Source of the DNA: Candidatus Omnitrophota bacterium
Lineage (GTDB): Bacteria > Omnitrophota > Gorgyraeia > Aquiviventales > Aquiviventaceae
Assembly: GCA_016198905.1 (NCBI GenBank)
Contig: JACQHR010000036.1
Span: forward strand, 1 to 56,090
Length of the DNA stretch: 56,090 nucleotides
Direction of reading: 5' to 3'
The translations under genes and the position numbers were made by a program. Every line of letters starts with the position of its first letter. Position 1 is the first letter of the stretch. Shown here in pieces: positions 11,755 to 50,340 of this stretch. Under the pieces are notes generated by a model. That model did not search any database. It worked only from the letters and a program-made list of their open reading frames with translations, and was not told where the DNA came from.

Positions 11755-12103
11755 GAGAAGAAACGTGGAGCAGCGGGGGATCGGCGCCTCCACTCGCTTT
11801 GCTCGTTCCGGTCGCCGCCCGGCCCTCCCAAGGAAGTCGCCGCTCCTATTCGTCGCGGCTCGCTAATTTGGGTCGGGCCTCCCTTCGATCCCTATAGCTC
11901 CACGAGAGAGAAGAAACGATGGTGGAGCAGCGGGGGATCGGCGCCTCCGGCCCCAAAGAATGCAACCGGGCCTCCGGTAGCCGCCCGCGCCTCCCAAGGT
12001 GGTCGTCGCTCGCTACTCGCTCGCGACTCCGTCAATCTTAGTCGGCGCTCCCTTCGATCCCCTGAGTTCTTGACGAGAAGAAACGTGGAGCAGCGGGGGA
12101 TCG
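11755..12103 (-). repeat. three direct copies of the tRNA-Ala 3' end plus trailer, separated by two homologous structured units
   Basis: GAGAAGAAACG(ATGG)TGGAGCAGCGGGGGATCG at 11755-11783, 11908-11940 and 12075-12103. Confidence 0.9.
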
Positions 12104-12158
12104 AACCCCGGGCCTCGACAGTGCGATTGTCGCGCTCTCCCAGCTGAGCTACTGCCCC
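12086..12158 (-). tRNA. tRNA-Ala(CGC), CCA not encoded
   Basis: GGGGCAG/CTGCTCC-A acceptor with G3:U70; D arm AGCTCAGCTGGGAGAGC; anticodon stem CGACA/TGTCG with loop ATCGCAC; GGTTCGATCCC T arm. Confidence 0.97.
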
Positions 12159-22521: not shown

Positions 22522-24474
22522 TCACGGGCTGAGCGTCAACAGGCAACAGGTCACACCGACTTTATGGTTGTTGTTGTCCCCGCTGCAGGTCGATGGGTTG
22601 CTCCACGTCACCGCGGTGACAACCTCGCCCCCTGCGCAACTCAGAGTTCCGTTACATGAGGGAAGAATGGTATAGCAGTTGCTGAATGTCAGCGTCGCAG
22701 ATGCGGCAGGCAGCGTCTGCCATTCCGCCTTGCTGCCATTTTGTGCAAGCACCTTCGCATTAGCGGCTGCTGTTGTACCCGGATCACCGGCCGTGAAGTT
22801 ACCATTGATGATGTTAAGCGTACTGCCGGTGTCGAATGTTGCACTCCCTCCTGTCGCCGTAAAATTAACGCCACCAGCGCTATCGAAATCCACGCTACCG
22901 CCGCCCCCACCCACCTGCAAATGGCATAGTACGCCACTACATTCAGCTCCTGCATAGGCACCGCCGGATATAGTGCCAATACCTAAGTGACCGCCACCGC
23001 CCCCGACAAAGCTTGTGCTACTTCCATCCGTAGCCACGAGATCATGACCTTGGACAAGGTTGATCGTGCTGCTCACGACTAAGGGCGAGGCTCCTCCATT
23101 GTTTCCAATCGCGCCTCGAAAATCTGAGGTGCCCGTGACGAGCAGGTCGTCATCTACCTTGACGGGAGTATTAGGGGTGCTGTTCCAAATCTTGCCTTTT
23201 ACATCCAGGTCATTCACCGTAAAATTTCCGGTGATTTCGAGATTGTTCAGCTTCGAGTCGCCGAATGGATCAACCAGAAACGTGGGATCATCAAGATCGA
23301 TGAACTGCTTGGCGGTCACATTGCCCTGCGCCACGATGCTCCCAATGGTCTGAATGCTCGTACTCAAACTTGTGGACGGCCCCACGAGGTTCACGTAGTC
23401 CTCCACCGTCAGGTTCTTAAAGTGCGCATCTCCTGTCACCGTGAGCTTCCCTAACTCCGTGTCGCCTACTACCTTGAGCCTTGCATTCAATTGTGTATCG
23501 CCGTCCACCTTCAGCTTCCCATGAATGAGCACATCATTGGTCGCTTCAAGGCTAGTTGGATTCCCATTGAGGACGAGTTTTTTATCTAACGTGACATCAT
23601 CATGAAATGCCGACTTGCCATTCACGTCCAACACGAGGCTGGAGTTATTCAGGGGACCGATGGTCGTCAGGTCCTTCAGATTGCTTTTGCCATACACCTC
23701 TAACATGAGGTTGGTGCTACCAGTGGTCGGACCGACGGTCGTCTTCTGCTCAAGTTTGGTCTCTCCGTTGGTCACCAGCAACCCGGTGCTGGCCGCACCT
23801 CCACCAGTGACCTTGAGGACTTCAGTCGCTGTGGCGTTCGTTGTCTTGTCAACCGTCGCGGCCCCGGTGATTTTCGTGAGGCCCGCGCCGATGTCGGCGG
23901 CGGTCTGGCCTGCCCCGCTGCCGATTACCTTCAGAGCCACGGTTCCCCCGCCGCTGCCAGTGACTTTGAGGACCTCAGTCGCTGAAGCATTGGTTGTCTT
24001 GTCGACCGTGGCGGCGCCGGTGATCTTGGTCAGGCCCGCGCCGATGTCGGCGGCAGTAGCGCCCGCACCGCTGCCGGTAACCTTCAAGGCTTGTGTCGCA
24101 GCAGCATTCGTCGATTTGTCGATGACCGCGCTTCCGGCCAGCGTCGTGGTCGCGTTTACCACCTTCAACCCTAACCCATACGGGAACGCAGGGACTGTGG
24201 GTTGGCTTTGGACATAGACGCTGCCGGTGATCTTGAGATTCCCTAAGTTGTTGATCGTCGTGACGTCGAGGATGTTCAACTTGCTCGTTTGATCCGGATC
24301 CACCTTGAAGACTGTGTTATCGTAATCTTCCCCTTTCCTGAACTGGATGTCATCGAACACGCCTCGTGGAGATGGATAGTACGTGGTGATCGTGACATCC
24401 TCGGCCCACGCCGCCCCCGCAACCACCATCACGCTCACGATCCCCCACATGCGCCAAGTCTTCATGAGGGTCAT
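22522..24474 (-). CDS. secreted beta-rich fibre-like protein, paralog 2 (EDVTITTYYPSPRG family), putative pilus adhesin
   Basis: same signal peptide and N-terminal motif; 51-aa (153-bp) internal repeat; six-Cys C-terminal domain. Confidence 0.78.
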   Translation of the reverse strand: MTLMKTWRMWGIVSVMVVAGAAWAEDVTITTYYPSPRGVFDDIQFRKGEDYDNTVFKVDPDQTSKLNILDVTTINNLGNLKITGSVYVQSQPTVPAFPYGLGLKVVNATTTLAGSAVIDKSTNAAATQALKVTGSGAGATAADIGAGLTKITGAATVDKTTNASATEVLKVTGSGGGTVALKVIGSGAGQTAADIGAGLTKITGAATVDKTTNATATEVLKVTGGGAASTGLLVTNGETKLEQKTTVGPTTGSTNLMLEVYGKSNLKDLTTIGPLNNSSLVLDVNGKSAFHDDVTLDKKLVLNGNPTSLEATNDVLIHGKLKVDGDTQLNARLKVVGDTELGKLTVTGDAHFKNLTVEDYVNLVGPSTSLSTSIQTIGSIVAQGNVTAKQFIDLDDPTFLVDPFGDSKLNNLEITGNFTVNDLDVKGKIWNSTPNTPVKVDDDLLVTGTSDFRGAIGNNGGASPLVVSSTINLVQGHDLVATDGSSTSFVGGGGGHLGIGTISGGAYAGAECSGVLCHLQVGGGGGSVDFDSAGGVNFTATGGSATFDTGSTLNIINGNFTAGDPGTTAAANAKVLAQNGSKAEWQTLPAASATLTFSNCYTILPSCNGTLSCAGGEVVTAVTWSNPSTCSGDNNNHKVGVTCCLLTLSP

Positions 24475-24974
24475 CGCCTCCCTTGGGCTGTGAGCGGGGC
24501 CTGTGTCCCGCTGTCGTCAAACCAGATGCTGTTGAGTTCCACGTTGTTCGCCTCGTTCGTCTCGTGCACGTCGTTGCCGGTATCCACCTTCAGGGTCATG
24601 CTGTGCAATCCGTTGGCCATCGTCATCGGCCGCATGAAGAGGAGCTTCACCGAGTGCTCGGCATTGGCTGGAACCGACTCGTCCACTCGTTGCCGGCCCA
24701 GGAGTCGGTCATCGAGCCACAGCTCGACGTCGAAACTGTTGCGCACTACCCGGTCTCCTCTGTTCTGCATAAAGACAAAGACCTTTGGAGGCTCGACCGC
24801 CGAAGGGACGATGCCCGCGGGCACGAGATCGACCCCGGAGGGCTGTGTTGGGGGCCTTGCGGTGCCATACTCCTCCGCCGCGATGCGCAACTGTCCGCTC
24901 AACAAGATAAGACCGATCACCGCGCAACTGGCACTGACCTGTCCCCATCGATATCGCATCTGTCCGCTCCTCAT
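24471..24974 (-). CDS. secreted CARDB-domain protein
   Basis: DLVP...NRG...F.V.LWLD...G.H...LKVDTGNDVHETNEANN; ATGA overlaps with both neighbours. Confidence 0.8.
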   Translation of the reverse strand: MRSGQMRYRWGQVSASCAVIGLILLSGQLRIAAEEYGTARPPTQPSGVDLVPAGIVPSAVEPPKVFVFMQNRGDRVVRNSFDVELWLDDRLLGRQRVDESVPANAEHSVKLLFMRPMTMANGLHSMTLKVDTGNDVHETNEANNVELNSIWFDDSGTQAPLTAQGRR

Positions 24975-25660
24975 GGGCACGACGCAGGGTTCGGGGCGAC
25001 GGTGTCCCCCGTGAGTCCGACCAGCAGTTTCGTATAGGCCGTGGAACCCAATCTTGTCTCTCCACGAATGGTAATGTACCCTCCAGGAGTTTTTGGATCC
25101 GGCGTTGTGATTTCGATTTTCAGCATGTTATTGTCCTCAGGAGGAGCCAGATGCGTCCCGATCGGGTCGCCTCCCAACGCCGCCGGCGACTCATCCATGT
25201 ACCGGAGCACCAATCCTGTGATCCCGAAAGCGATCTTGCTCGTGACAGGAGGACAGGGCCCTCCAATTGGAATGTTGTCGTAGAAGAGCACTTGATTGAG
25301 CAGAGGCCCGGTGTGGCTGTACTGTCTCCACGTATAATTGTTCACGTTGCCGGCAGTCCCTGCACTCGTCACGCTGGTGGGGACACGGAACATCACCTTG
25401 GCATATGGCGCTGCGGGCGGATTGTTCCCACGTTCGACTAAGACGACGCGGTCGGCATTTTTGAGCTGTTTGAGCATATGGTTCATGGCGTAGACCGCTT
25501 CCATATATTGGGTGGCGCGCCCGCGCGCTTGCTCAGCCAGAAGCACGCGCGTCACATCGGTTTGGCCTACCACGAGGATCACGATGAATCCAATCGCTGA
25601 GGCGATCAGCAGCTCGGTCATCGTGAATCCATGACGCGCAAAGGGCTTAGTTCGGCTCAT
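24971..25660 (-). CDS. minor pilin, PilW-like
   Basis: RHG|FTMTELLIASAI class III signal. Confidence 0.8.
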   Translation of the reverse strand: MSRTKPFARHGFTMTELLIASAIGFIVILVVGQTDVTRVLLAEQARGRATQYMEAVYAMNHMLKQLKNADRVVLVERGNNPPAAPYAKVMFRVPTSVTSAGTAGNVNNYTWRQYSHTGPLLNQVLFYDNIPIGGPCPPVTSKIAFGITGLVLRYMDESPAALGGDPIGTHLAPPEDNNMLKIEITTPDPKTPGGYITIRGETRLGSTAYTKLLVGLTGDTVAPNPASCP

Positions 25661-26189
25661 TCCACGTCACCGTTCCGCTCACGATGTAGTAGTCCGGCTT
25701 GCCATCCCCGTCAAGGTCAGGCCCGCTCTTGACCTCATATGTCCGCCCTGTCCCGCTATACCCCAAAATGGATGGCACGATACCGCCCGGCAGCGGCTCA
25801 GGTCTTGATCCGGCGTCAATCGGAGAAGTCGCCGGGTTTAGCGCCGCGCCTGTCGTATCAGGTTTGCACGAGTCAGTTGGCACAAGTATTGATACTGGTA
25901 GAAACCAGGCATCACCGCCTGTCTCTGCTGCCCGACGACACGCGATCTTGTTGCGCTTGTCTTCCAAGGTCTGGGTCACGTAGGTGACCGCCTCAGCTTT
26001 GCCGATCGAGCGTCCTGAGAGCCGGGCCGCCATCCCGAAGGCCATCATCGTCCCAGCGGCCACCAACGTGCCGATCACAAGCGCGAGCATGACTTCGACT
26101 AACGTCATGCCAGCCTCGAGGCGCGCGGCAACCATATAGCCGTCCTTATTCGACATTCGAGAGAGGTCTCGATTCATTAGTATTGCCAC
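25647..26189 (-). CDS. minor pilin, PilV-like (start uncertain)
   Basis: AG|MTLVEVMLALVIG signal; C-terminal V.GTVTW. Confidence 0.78.
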   Translation of the reverse strand: MAILMNRDLSRMSNKDGYMVAARLEAGMTLVEVMLALVIGTLVAAGTMMAFGMAARLSGRSIGKAEAVTYVTQTLEDKRNKIACRRAAETGGDAWFLPVSILVPTDSCKPDTTGAALNPATSPIDAGSRPEPLPGGIVPSILGYSGTGRTYEVKSGPDLDGDGKPDYYIVSGTVTWNEPN

Positions 26190-26710
26190 TTATCGAATCC
26201 AGATCCCGCACAGGCTGTAAACGGTGCGACGGTTGGGTTACCGTTATGGCACCATCCACGGTTAGCATCGATCGTCATCGCTGGATCATGTGCCGCCGAT
26301 CTGCTTCGGTCAGCGGTCGCGGTAAAACCAGTATCCCCGAATGCTACCAGTGGCGGACCAACACTAAAATCAATCGGGATGGAACCGAGATTCGGGTTAT
26401 CCATCTTGATCATCCGCCAATCCGAATTGGGACTGAATTTGGTCAGCCCCGTCTTCCACGTCCCGTTGTTAAACTGGTAGTTTCGCTCGCCGGTGTAAAT
26501 AGTCAGGAGAATGTCCTGAGCCGATTGCCAATATCCTCGCCTGATCGTCTTGATGTAGCTGGGAATCGCCATGCTCGCGAGAATGCCGACAATCACCACG
26601 GCCATCATCACTTCAGTTAGGGTAAACCCGCGCACACTTCGACGATAACGATTCGCCCGCTTCCCCATGCCCAACCAGCGCATTATCCCAATCATGCATT
26701 CCCACATCAT
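26177..26710 (-). CDS. minor pilin, PilE-like
   Basis: RG|FTLTEVMMAVVIVGILASMAIPSY; FTATA motif. Confidence 0.85.
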   Translation of the reverse strand: MMWECMIGIMRWLGMGKRANRYRRSVRGFTLTEVMMAVVIVGILASMAIPSYIKTIRRGYWQSAQDILLTIYTGERNYQFNNGTWKTGLTKFSPNSDWRMIKMDNPNLGSIPIDFSVGPPLVAFGDTGFTATADRSRSAAHDPAMTIDANRGWCHNGNPTVAPFTACAGSGFDKWQY

Positions 26711-27282
26711 TGGTAGCTCGCTTTCACGTGAATGGTATGTTGACGTGGAGCAAACGGCGGCAATGGAGGAAGTGGTGGAGGTTGTACCCCGCAGTTCGTC
26801 ACAGTGACTTCCACATAGGGATCAGTGAGATCCCCCGGCGGACCAATAATGCCGTTACCGTTAGCATCAATGAATTCAGCCGACTCCGCATCAAAACCAT
26901 TGATGGACGGATTACAGGCTTTACTCGGATCAGGAGCGCTAGGATCATGACCAAACGTGCAGTGCGATTTTCCGGGAATGATGGCGCAACTTGGAATCGA
27001 TCCAGTCGCATTATCGGGATAATTGCGGAAATCTACGAGAGGAGGTCCAGGTTTGTAGGTCATGAGTTTGTGCGCGACCAGGACATAGCCCGCCTCCGCA
27101 AGATACTGCGCTTTCGCGCGCTCTTCCATGCCCTGCGATTGTCCGGATTGACTGTTCGCAATATTCAATATGACGTAGCCGAGCACTCCCATCAGAAATC
27201 CCATGATTAAAATGATCCCGAGCGCGCTGCCGCGTTCGTTCTGCAGCGATCCTCGACGCTGTGCAACCTCTGGGCGCATCAT
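26707..27282 (-). CDS. minor pilin, PilX/GspK-like (no Glu5)
   Basis: NERG|SALGIILIMG and KAQYLAEAG; GGAG SD upstream of ATG 27282. Confidence 0.8.
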   Translation of the reverse strand: MMRPEVAQRRGSLQNERGSALGIILIMGFLMGVLGYVILNIANSQSGQSQGMEERAKAQYLAEAGYVLVAHKLMTYKPGPPLVDFRNYPDNATGSIPSCAIIPGKSHCTFGHDPSAPDPSKACNPSINGFDAESAEFIDANGNGIIGPPGDLTDPYVEVTVTNCGVQPPPLPPLPPFAPRQHTIHVKASYQ

Positions 27283-27299: not shown

Positions 27300-27326
27300 A
27301 TAAAAAAACCGAACCACTGGTTCGGT
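27300..27326 (-). terminator. intrinsic terminator (riboswitch expression platform)
   Basis: ACCGAACC-AGT-GGTTCGGT followed by a U tract on the minus strand. Confidence 0.88.
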
Positions 27327-27423
27327 AGCTCAGCCATCTCACGTGTGGTCGGCAGCCCGGCTGTCTCGCGAGACCCGTAGCTTTGCGCCCTCCGCTCACG
27401 CGAAGTTTGCCCTTTCGCCAGTC
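27316..27423 (-). ncRNA. c-di-GMP-I (GEMM-I) riboswitch with duplicated 3' strand
   Basis: minus strand GGGCAAAC-TTCGC-GTGA-GCGGAG-GGCGCAAAGCTACGGGTCT-CGCG-AGACAGCCGGGCTGCCGA matches the GEMM-I consensus with a GNRA loop; sits upstream of the pilus operon. Confidence 0.9.
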
Positions 27424-27461: not shown

Positions 27462-27491
27462 AGTATGCCTAATGCGATTTCTCGGTGTCAA
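27462..27491 (-). promoter_or_regulatory. sigma70 promoter of the pilus operon
   Basis: TTGACA-18 bp-CATACT, ~40 nt upstream of the aptamer. Confidence 0.65.
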
Positions 27492-49488: not shown

Positions 49489-50340
49489 TCAGCGGAGAAT
49501 CTCGGTGCCAATGCCTTGCTTCGTGAAAATCTCCAGCAGCATTGCGTGCGGAATGCCCGCATCGATGATGTGGGTCTTCTTCACCCCGCGCCGCAGCGCG
49601 TGGACGCACGCCTTCACTTTCGGGATCATGCCCGCCTGAATGACGTGCCGGTCAATCAAGTGTTGTGAATCTTTCACCGACAGCGTCGAGATGAGCGAGC
49701 CCACATCGTCCGCGTGCCGCACAATCCCTCGGACGTTGGTCAGCAGCACGAGTTTCTCGGCCTTCAGGTGCGCGGCCACTTCGCTGGCCACGTCGTCCGC
49801 ATTGATGTTGTAGAGCCGGCCGGCGCCATCGACGCCAACCGGCGAGATCACCGGAATCGCGTGGCGCTTCAAGATCATCCGAATCGGGCCGATGCGCACC
49901 AGGCTGACCGACCCGACGAATCCCAGCGTGGCGGCCTTTGCATGCGGCTCGGCAATGATCACCCGCTGCTTCGCGACGAGGCCTTCGGCATGGCCTCCGA
50001 GCGAGCGAATCCGGGTCACCAAGCGATGATTCACCTCGCTGAGTGCGTGATTGACCACGCGAACGGTCTCGCGATCCGTGACGCGAATGCCGTGGACGAA
50101 CTCGGTCTTGCGCCCAACCTCGGAGAGCTTGCGCGTGATCTCCGGCCCGCCTCCGTGGACGAGCACCGAGCGAATCCCCACGGTGCTGAGAAAGATAAGA
50201 TCCTGCAGCACGGCGTTCATCGCCGCCGGGTTGTCAATGGCGCTGCCGCCGTACTTGGCGACGATAATCTTCGAGCGAAACGCCTGGATGTACGGGATCG
50301 CCTCGATGAGGATCCCGGCTTTCTCAATGAACCGTTCCAT
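49489..50340 (-). CDS. argB: acetylglutamate kinase
   Basis: KYGGS, HGGGP, NINAD, GMIPK. Confidence 0.96.
   Translation of the reverse strand: MERFIEKAGILIEAIPYIQAFRSKIIVAKYGGSAIDNPAAMNAVLQDLIFLSTVGIRSVLVHGGGPEITRKLSEVGRKTEFVHGIRVTDRETVRVVNHALSEVNHRLVTRIRSLGGHAEGLVAKQRVIIAEPHAKAATLGFVGSVSLVRIGPIRMILKRHAIPVISPVGVDGAGRLYNINADDVASEVAAHLKAEKLVLLTNVRGIVRHADDVGSLISTLSVKDSQHLIDRHVIQAGMIPKVKACVHALRRGVKKTHIIDAGIPHAMLLEIFTKQGIGTEILR

Follow-up and report, generated by a model that had tools for sequence, protein, structure and literature searches.

A predicted cyclic di-GMP-I riboswitch in which two aptamer 3' halves share one 5' half ahead of a prepilin-type operon of Candidatus Omnitrophota

We have examined a stretch of 56,090 nucleotides from Candidatus Omnitrophota bacterium (assembly GCA_016198905.1, contig JACQHR010000036.1, positions 1 to 56,090; referred to here as the window). 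On its minus strand, at 27302-27422, lies a leader that carries a GEMM-I, or cyclic di-GMP-I (c-di-GMP-I), aptamer ahead of an operon encoding prepilin-type proteins. Judged by its sequence, this leader is a c-di-GMP-I riboswitch in which a single aptamer 5' half is followed by two 3' halves, an arrangement that we name a two-register aptamer. A covariance-model search, proposed as a check by an earlier inspection that used only the letters of the DNA (the sequence-only reading), places an RF01051 match at 27348-27421 that scores 62.7 bits against a gathering score of 35 and aligns to the proximal of the two 3' halves. RF03167 passes its gathering score of 59 marginally, with 60.4 bits at 27347-27420, and likewise uses the proximal copy.

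The leader is built as follows, all on the minus strand. The P1 5' strand, ACTGGCG (27416-27422), is common to both folds and is followed by a G at 27411 and the P1b hairpin with its GUGA tetraloop (together 27385-27411), an A at 27384, and the P2 5' strand, AGCTACGGGTCT (27371-27382, designated A), which is the sole partner for both 3' halves; for counts of P2 pairs we used AGCTACGGGTC at 27372-27382. The proximal 3' half, B1 (27346-27370), consists of the loop CGCG, a P2 3' strand, a C at 27352 and a P1 3' strand. The distal 3' half, B2 (27318-27343), consists of a CGTG extension, a P2 3' strand, a C at 27325 and a P1 3' strand, and the CGTG extension pairs with the loop of the fold made with B1. 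We refer to the 5' half with B1, which is the aptamer given by Rfam, as register 1 and to the 5' half with B2, the anti-terminator, as register 2. In the numbering of the Vibrio cholerae aptamer Vc2 we take 27411 to be the equivalent of G20, 27384 that of A47, and 27352 and 27325 those of C92; the bases found there are G, A, C and C, the first as the sequence-only reading had it. Scored with a position matrix made from the 3' halves of 157 leaders of the family (described below), B1 reaches 26.3 bits and B2 22.8 bits; when the opposite strands of the leader regions were scanned with this matrix as a control for chance, 78,427 positions gave four matches at 12 bits or more.

Direct reading of the two 3' halves confirms both their positions and the earlier claim that they differ by transitions that spare their pairing with the single 5' strand. 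The copies differ by six substitutions, all transitions, and by one extra A; the three substitutions that fall at P2 pairs keep pairing with AGCTACGGGTC (G-C to G-U twice, U-G to U-A once), and in the fixed Rfam register B1 and B2 each make 10 of 10 standard P2 pairs. The sequence-only reading had also set a 5-base-pair P1 with B1 against a 7-base-pair P1 with B2 (ACTGGCG / CG-AA-CCAGT). This holds in the window, but most orthologues form the same 6-base-pair P1 with both copies, and the contrast is thus specific to the window. We note that in an unconstrained minimum-energy fold of 27330-27399 on the minus strand the P1b 5' strand TTCGCGTG pairs with the start of B2, CACGTGAG, because the motif CG(C/T)GAG is present three times in the leader; this pairing may be a misfold or a further alternative pairing.

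The leader ends in an intrinsic terminator, CCGAACC-AGT-GGTTCGG-T7, at 27302-27335 on the minus strand (inner stem 27308-27326, alternative outer stem 27307-27335). Its 5' arm sits within B2 and B1 is free of any overlap with it, so that the terminator can form alongside the proximal fold but is precluded by the distal one, as had been supposed. The overlap between terminator 5' arm and aptamer 3' half that marks an ON-type platform is thus found for B2 and never for B1. The terminator 5' arm is a copy of the aptamer 3' strand, not its complement, which sets the leader apart from a classical OFF-type platform.

A σ70-like promoter (TTGACA, 18 nucleotides, CATACT; 10 of 12 matches) lies at 27462-27491 on the minus strand, one such site being found where shuffled sequences give 0.2, and a CutA1 gene is located upstream of the leader. 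The controlled operon (22522-27282, minus strand) encodes, in order, a 191-amino-acid protein that matches no family, three prepilin-type proteins, a CARDB-domain protein and a 650-amino-acid protein whose open reading frame (22522-24474, minus strand) ends the operon and likewise matches no family. All three prepilin-type proteins carry the Pfam N_methyl domain (prepilin-type N-terminal methylation domain) and score above the cut-off of TIGR02532. Elsewhere in the window are a tRNA gene (12086-12158, minus strand, 59.2 bits) and a weak RF03167 match (49939-49992, minus strand, 14.7 bits, E 0.62) that is probably noise.

To place the leader among its relatives we assembled 157 leaders from 39 genomes (12 from the source genome, 29 loci and 116 further regions), those of the relatives being the best-scoring 150 of 536 matches, to which the 12 source-genome matches were added with overlapping rows counted once. 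GEMM-I matches are present in 58 of 61 genomes (60 relatives and the source genome), with up to 28 in a single 1.7-Mb genome; the source assembly, which is 1.41 Mb long and 80% complete, has 12 at E <0.001. We note that at 10-12 in a 1.41-Mb assembly the density of c-di-GMP-I riboswitches is very high for so small a genome.

The aptamer of the window shares with described members of RF01051, such as Vc2, the P1 helix, the P1b hairpin with its GNRA loop, the P2 helix and the equivalents of G20, A47 and C92, and these nucleotides are retained across the leaders (A47-equivalent, 157/157; C75, the C92-equivalent, 157/157; G20-equivalent, 147/157). It departs from described members, whose 3' half is single, in that two 3' halves vie for the one 5' half and so make two alternative complete aptamers. 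By clan competition the best Rfam label, for the window and for most relatives, is c-di-GMP-I-GGC (RF03167), whose seed the short P2 resembles, even though RF01051 has the higher bit score in the window (62.7 versus 60.4). The A47-equivalent, however, corresponds to position 37 of the RF03167 model, which we take, from the name of the family and its consensus, to be the site that defines the GGC variant; the variant consensus has G there, and the window, like all 157 leaders, has A. We take the aptamer to be an ordinary c-di-GMP-I member, and the automatic annotation of this lineage as RF03167 is likely to be a mislabelling. Three leaders, L009 (G000:C42:16870-16952), L036 and L150, have A at the G20-equivalent and may be variants of the cyclic GMP-AMP type (GEMM-Ib-like) in the same lineage.

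The layout seen in the window recurs in a sizeable fraction of these leaders, which answers the earlier proposal that it be sought in relatives. In the matrix search 37 of the 157 leaders have two 3' halves, 112 have one and eight have none. The copies lie no more than 90 nucleotides apart in 35 of the 37, with linkers of 5-80 nucleotides (median 9), and one of the two wider-spaced pairs is a true tandem; two more duplicated leaders, L022 and L082, were spotted by eye, so that the total stands at 35-37 of 157. At least one duplicated leader is present in 20 of the 39 genomes, and the source genome has four (L001, L002, L004 and that of the window). A second 5' motif of the GGCAAAC type between the copies, which would give each 3' half its own 5' half as in a tandem riboswitch, was found in none of the 35 close pairs. 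Of overlapping matches the Rfam scan retains the best one alone, and the covariance models choose between the copies in different ways: in some leaders, such as L004 and L039 (RF03167) and L001 and L002 (RF01051), the distal copy is picked and the proximal one is treated as an insertion in P2, and in two paralogues RF03167 chooses the proximal copy and RF01051 the distal one.

When leaders are clustered by the first open reading frame downstream, some operons always have the extra copy and others never do; the cluster of the window numbers 11 leaders in as many genomes, every one of them duplicated. Among leaders with at least 300 nucleotides of downstream sequence, a prepilin motif occurs in the first open reading frame behind 7 of 36 duplicated leaders compared with 4 of 113 single ones. 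Pfam N_methyl is found in 5 of 36 first-reading-frame fragments of duplicated leaders, a scan confined to that class, which is why we claim no enrichment from it. The N-terminal motif TTYYPSPRGV of the 650-amino-acid protein that ends the window's operon is also seen in the first gene behind two other duplicated leaders (L076 and L087), both in one relative.

The relation between copy and terminator is preserved as well. The terminator 5' arm overlaps B2 in 32 of the 35 duplicated leaders, the other three having no terminator that we could find, and the terminator 3' arm, which we call C, has B2 as its better partner in 27 of the 32, B1 in three and neither in two. Single-copy leaders fall into 52 of the ordinary ON type, whose aptamer 3' half doubles as the terminator 5' arm, 42 with a separate hairpin and 20 with none. 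A classical OFF design was found in none of the 42 single-copy leaders with a separate terminator, where the duplex energy between aptamer 3' strand and terminator 5' arm is no better than after permutation (-8.4 versus -9.3). Many single-copy leaders (L006, L031, L064 and L094 among them) end in CCGAAGGAG with a start codon nearby; in these the P1 3' strand overlaps a Shine-Dalgarno-like GGAG, which suggests translational expression platforms.

We find that both pairings have been maintained. In an RNA-level alignment of 12 leaders of the window's operon, pairing in the P2 helix reaches 94.4% for register 1, where two pairs have changed on both strands, and 95.5% for register 2 with the extension counted, where three have; if the partners are displaced by one to three columns, pairing falls to 27-43%. 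Of the three register-2 pairs changed on both strands, one, between columns 61 and 98, is made in register 2 only and covaries (AU in five leaders, CG, GU, UA and UG in one each, other combinations in three). P1b is 100% paired, five of its pairs having changed on both strands, P1 made with B2 is 96.7% paired, and the terminator is 95.2% paired in its outer and 88.1% in its inner stem; the three-helix architecture with a GNRA-capped (GUGA) hairpin is thus backed by covariation. Decay of the extra copy in orthologues without compensatory pairing, which the sequence-only reading had named as the sign that would tell against it, is contradicted by these covarying helices.

Across the duplicated leaders each copy makes 338 of 350 possible P2 pairs with its own 5' strand; when 5' strands are permuted among loci the mean is 331 and 338 is reached in 0 of 5,000 trials, counts that overstate independence because the sequences are related. 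Of 59 differences between B1 and B2 at paired positions, 35 keep both pairings (all of them transitions), 12 break the pairing of B1 only and 12 that of B2 only. The earlier suggestion that both copies are maintained is thus upheld. The copies also appear, from their sequences, to be old and separately evolving lineages that have escaped homogenisation: identity across genomes is 16.35 of 19 positions between B1s and 16.3 between B2s, compared with 15.0 of 19 between B1 and B2 of the same locus, and at position 74 the orthologues have G in 12 of 12 B1s and A in 11 of 12 B2s. With positions 66, 74 and 75 masked from detection, 36 leaders are recovered, and G66 and C75 are present in both copies of all 36, even as position 65, adjoining G66, takes all four bases; one of the cases found by eye, L022, has T at position 75 of its proximal copy. 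Past pair 49-62 the B2 helix runs a mean of 3.34 base pairs further, into the proximal hairpin's loop, some 2 base pairs more than the B1 helix (1.43), and permutation gives 1.39 and matches the observed value in 0 of 5,000 trials. This suggests that the B2 extension is toehold-like.

The layout is not confined to close relatives. A search for the exact two-copy pattern in one genome per species gave at least 120 loci, and among those listed 24 also carry a GEMM-type 5' half (by regular expression), the other 96 being mostly GC-rich chance matches. The record titles of the 24 name Candidatus Omnitrophota (14), Elusimicrobia or Elusimicrobiota (4), metagenome-assembled genomes labelled 'uncultured Planctomycetales' (4) and Anaerolineae or Anaerolineales (2), and in 13 of the 14 of these loci that were tested Rfam confirmed a GEMM-I match above the gathering score. 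Of 401 genomes of the phylum, 11 contain the strict pattern and none a reversed-pattern control; the figure of 11 is a floor and not a prevalence because the strict pattern catches just 15 of 35 known cases.

These observations bear on whether the second copy does anything at all. Short tandem duplications arise easily, and the within-locus identity of the copies (13-19 of 19 positions) is what a neutral or decaying local duplication with no regulatory role could leave behind; against this, 11 of 11 orthologous leaders in 11 genomes keep the layout, the copies behave as separate lineages while both of their pairings covary, and the titles of the records in which the layout is found name three or four phyla, so that we disfavour a neutral origin of the pattern and consider it very improbable. 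Since the layout, both pairings, G66 and C75, and the overlap with the terminator are all kept, two mutually exclusive aptamer registers appear to be under selection, of which one would permit the terminator and the other would block it.

We propose that the two registers are used in sequence as the leader is transcribed. Register 1 would be completed first, leaving B2 free to pair with the downstream strand C and form the terminator. Register 2, which would use up the terminator 5' arm, would be reached by strand exchange, for which the B2 extension, by pairing with the loop of the register-1 hairpin, could serve as the toehold. Either register could be locked by c-di-GMP. Because both registers keep the ligand-contacting nucleotides, both should bind equally, and ligand should then be unable to shift the equilibrium between them; control would therefore be kinetic. 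Early capture of ligand in register 1 would block exchange and lead to termination, capture after exchange, in register 2, would block invasion by C and lead to readthrough, and without ligand C would invade from the unpaired C75 and retake B2, the 5' half would return to B1, and termination would again result. We infer here that each register binds ligand, that ligand-bound register 1 resists exchange, and the dose-response that follows. On this reading the pilin-like operon might respond non-monotonically to c-di-GMP, readthrough peaking at intermediate concentrations and termination prevailing at zero and at high concentrations; we hold this to be possible, at somewhat short of even confidence. 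The sequence-only reading had likewise suggested a kinetic or band-pass switch, or else an inversion of the sign of an ancestral ON switch. The broader proposal, that this is a natural single-ligand band-pass riboswitch through which expression of pilus-like operons in Omnitrophota and in some Elusimicrobiota and Anaerolineae would be limited to intermediate c-di-GMP, we put forward as doubtful, if worth pursuing.

Constrained folding is in part consistent with such a sequence of events. Register 1 forms in transcripts that extend to B1; in transcripts that extend to B2, register 2 is the more stable in 25 of 35 leaders and register 1 in nine, with one tie; and in full-length leaders the terminator is part of the minimum in each of the 32 where a T run was found, while imposing register 2 costs 0-24 kcal/mol. 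Since register 1 with the terminator is lowest with or without ligand, any effect of ligand should be kinetic. Three further calculations or models were set aside. Explicit-structure energies and direct-path barriers (register 2 lower in 9 of 12, barriers of about 10 kcal/mol) went unused, the register-1 structure having lacked the outer P1 pairs, which biased them. Pairing of B1 with B2 as an anti-terminator like that of Cd1 (see below) was rejected by hand, as their near-palindromic cores give weak, mismatch-centred duplexes, and an H-type pseudoknot (B1 with C, the 5' half with B2) was rejected because C prefers B2 in 27 of 32 leaders.

Several observations weigh against the two-output reading. 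In addition to the relatedness of the sequences, which tempers the permutation counts given above, pair 44-69 is an A-C mismatch in seven proximal copies, and a trap would be weaker for it. The window itself favours register 1 once B2 is made (-39.2, versus -37.0 for register 2), and its explicit states are nearly equal in energy (-35.5 or -37.4 for register 1 with the terminator, -36.5 for register 2). The amplitude of a band-pass response is also limited, our own arithmetic giving a peak of about 25% if the two binding windows are equal, and if ligand-bound register 1 yields to invasion by its exact mimic the copy would make an ON switch more sensitive. Finally, the module made of B2 and C is indistinguishable from that of the 52 single-copy ON leaders in energy gap (-6.35 versus -8.55, p 0.62), and it fits a plain ON switch with an accessory copy equally well; hairpin strength is similar in the two classes (-18.95 versus -20.05, p 0.61) and the median distance to the T run is 16.5 nucleotides in both.

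This last comparison brings in the possibility that the leader is an ON switch that pre-loads its ligand, with early capture on B1, toehold exchange during which the ligand is retained, and register 2 then blocking the terminator. The aptamer made with B1 is complete 25-45 nucleotides before B2, so a slow-binding ligand would gain time, and without ligand B1 would partner the released 5' half and lower leakage, the net result being a more sensitive and tighter ON switch. That B2 and C form the same module as in the 52 single-copy ON leaders fits this explanation, as do the toehold of B2, the fact that B1 is often the weaker partner, the ligand-contacting nucleotides kept in both copies and the shortness of the decision window in ON leaders, measured as the 16.5 nucleotides from aptamer end to T run; the accessible text of PMC9262584 gives a binding window of 1.2 s for the ON-type pilM switch. 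It would nevertheless require invasion of a ligand-bound aptamer through the ligand pocket in less than about 1 s, the inner terminator of the window's group needs only the P1 3' strand of B2, the part most protected in register 1, and register 1 with the terminator is lower in energy even with ligand. We regard ligand pre-loading as unlikely on balance.

The copy might alternatively turn the leader into a simple OFF switch, in which register 1 is the sole sensor, B2 is a ligand-independent, transient anti-terminator that resembles an aptamer only because the same strands must be paired, and ligand locks register 1 and so causes termination. The terminator can form alongside register 1, as it does beside the aptamer of the OFF-type Cd1 riboswitch, whose anti-terminator is only transiently stable according to the accessible text of PMC9262584; B2 is favoured once made in 25 of 35 leaders; and the proximal copy keeps G66 and C75. 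The failure to find a classical OFF design among this lineage's 42 single-copy leaders with a separate terminator also makes a termination-promoting role for the duplication somewhat more attractive. Yet C should invade a ligand-free anti-terminator as readily as it does in single-copy ON leaders, energies, arm lengths and spacing being alike, and the invariant nucleotides of B2 that are unpaired in the aptamer would be unneeded for such a role. We think it improbable that the copy acts as an inverter of this kind.

Equally improbable in our view is that B1 is a decoy that merely competes for the 5' half, raising the c-di-GMP concentration needed for the ON state and lowering basal readthrough, so that operons in genomes with 10-28 such switches fire at different c-di-GMP levels and any binding of ligand by register 1 is incidental. 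The many GEMM-I leaders in each small genome and the copy's constant presence in particular operons and absence from others are in keeping with such tuning of thresholds, and so is the mismatch conserved in seven proximal copies. But a decoy does not require G66, C75 or the P1 3' strand, which are kept in 36 of 36 leaders while position 65 drifts, and were ligand trapping harmful a single change at C75 would abolish it.

Compared with known c-di-GMP-I switches, the leader would combine in one RNA two logics that are otherwise separate. Register 2 resembles the pilM-type ON platform, in which aptamer and terminator are mutually exclusive, and register 1 resembles the Cd1-type OFF platform, in which aptamer and terminator coexist and a competing fold prevents termination, as far as these platforms are described in the accessible text of PMC9262584. 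The same text indicates that the anti-terminator of an OFF switch need only be transiently stable and that the binding window of an ON type is about 1.2 s. In Cd1 the switching strand is complementary to the aptamer 3' strand (PMC9262584); in the present leader it duplicates the aptamer 3' strand and vies with it for the same partner. Tandem c-di-GMP-I riboswitches (doublets and triplets) also repeat aptamer sequence within a leader and modify the response to a single ligand, but in the accessible text of PMC9481103 and PMC4759541 each of them is a complete aptamer that has a 5' half, and usually a platform, to itself, whereas here the 3' half alone is repeated and the two aptamers cannot coexist. 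The survey of tandem riboswitches, in its accessible text, discarded overlapping hits as single riboswitches (PMC9481103), and a layout like this one would be hidden by such merging.

A search of full-text literature, most subscription papers and supplements lying outside its scope, found neither a duplicated aptamer half nor a pair of aptamers with a common 5' half described; the sequence-only reading, too, knew of no riboswitch laid out in this way. Classical attenuation offers a further parallel. In the trp leader attenuator, pairing of segments 1 with 2 and 3 with 4 gives termination, the alternative pairing of 2 with 3 gives readthrough, and the ribosome is the arbiter. Both leaders have four segments, with two compatible hairpins that terminate and one alternative pairing that reads through; in the c-di-GMP-I leader, unlike in trp, the alternative pairing is between the non-adjacent segments 1 and 3, because segment 3 mimics segment 2, and the arbiter would be the ligand.

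What we describe is a new expression-platform logic on a known aptamer. Platforms are usually described as a single aptamer with a 3' strand for which one alternative helix competes, and here the contested element is a second copy of that strand; the anti-terminator is thus itself an aptamer, and ligand would consequently act solely by way of when strand exchange takes place during transcription. Should the outputs of the two registers be opposite, the leader would be a natural example of one small RNA that responds non-monotonically; should the copy serve to pre-load ligand, it would show how nature widens the very short decision window of an ON switch. In either case it would offer a compact natural model of how strand displacement from a toehold can control genes, and a template on which synthetic switches could be built. 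It also draws attention to a lineage of small genomes that appears to run many of its surface and pilus operons on c-di-GMP riboswitches, with 10-28 of them in genomes of 1-2 Mb.

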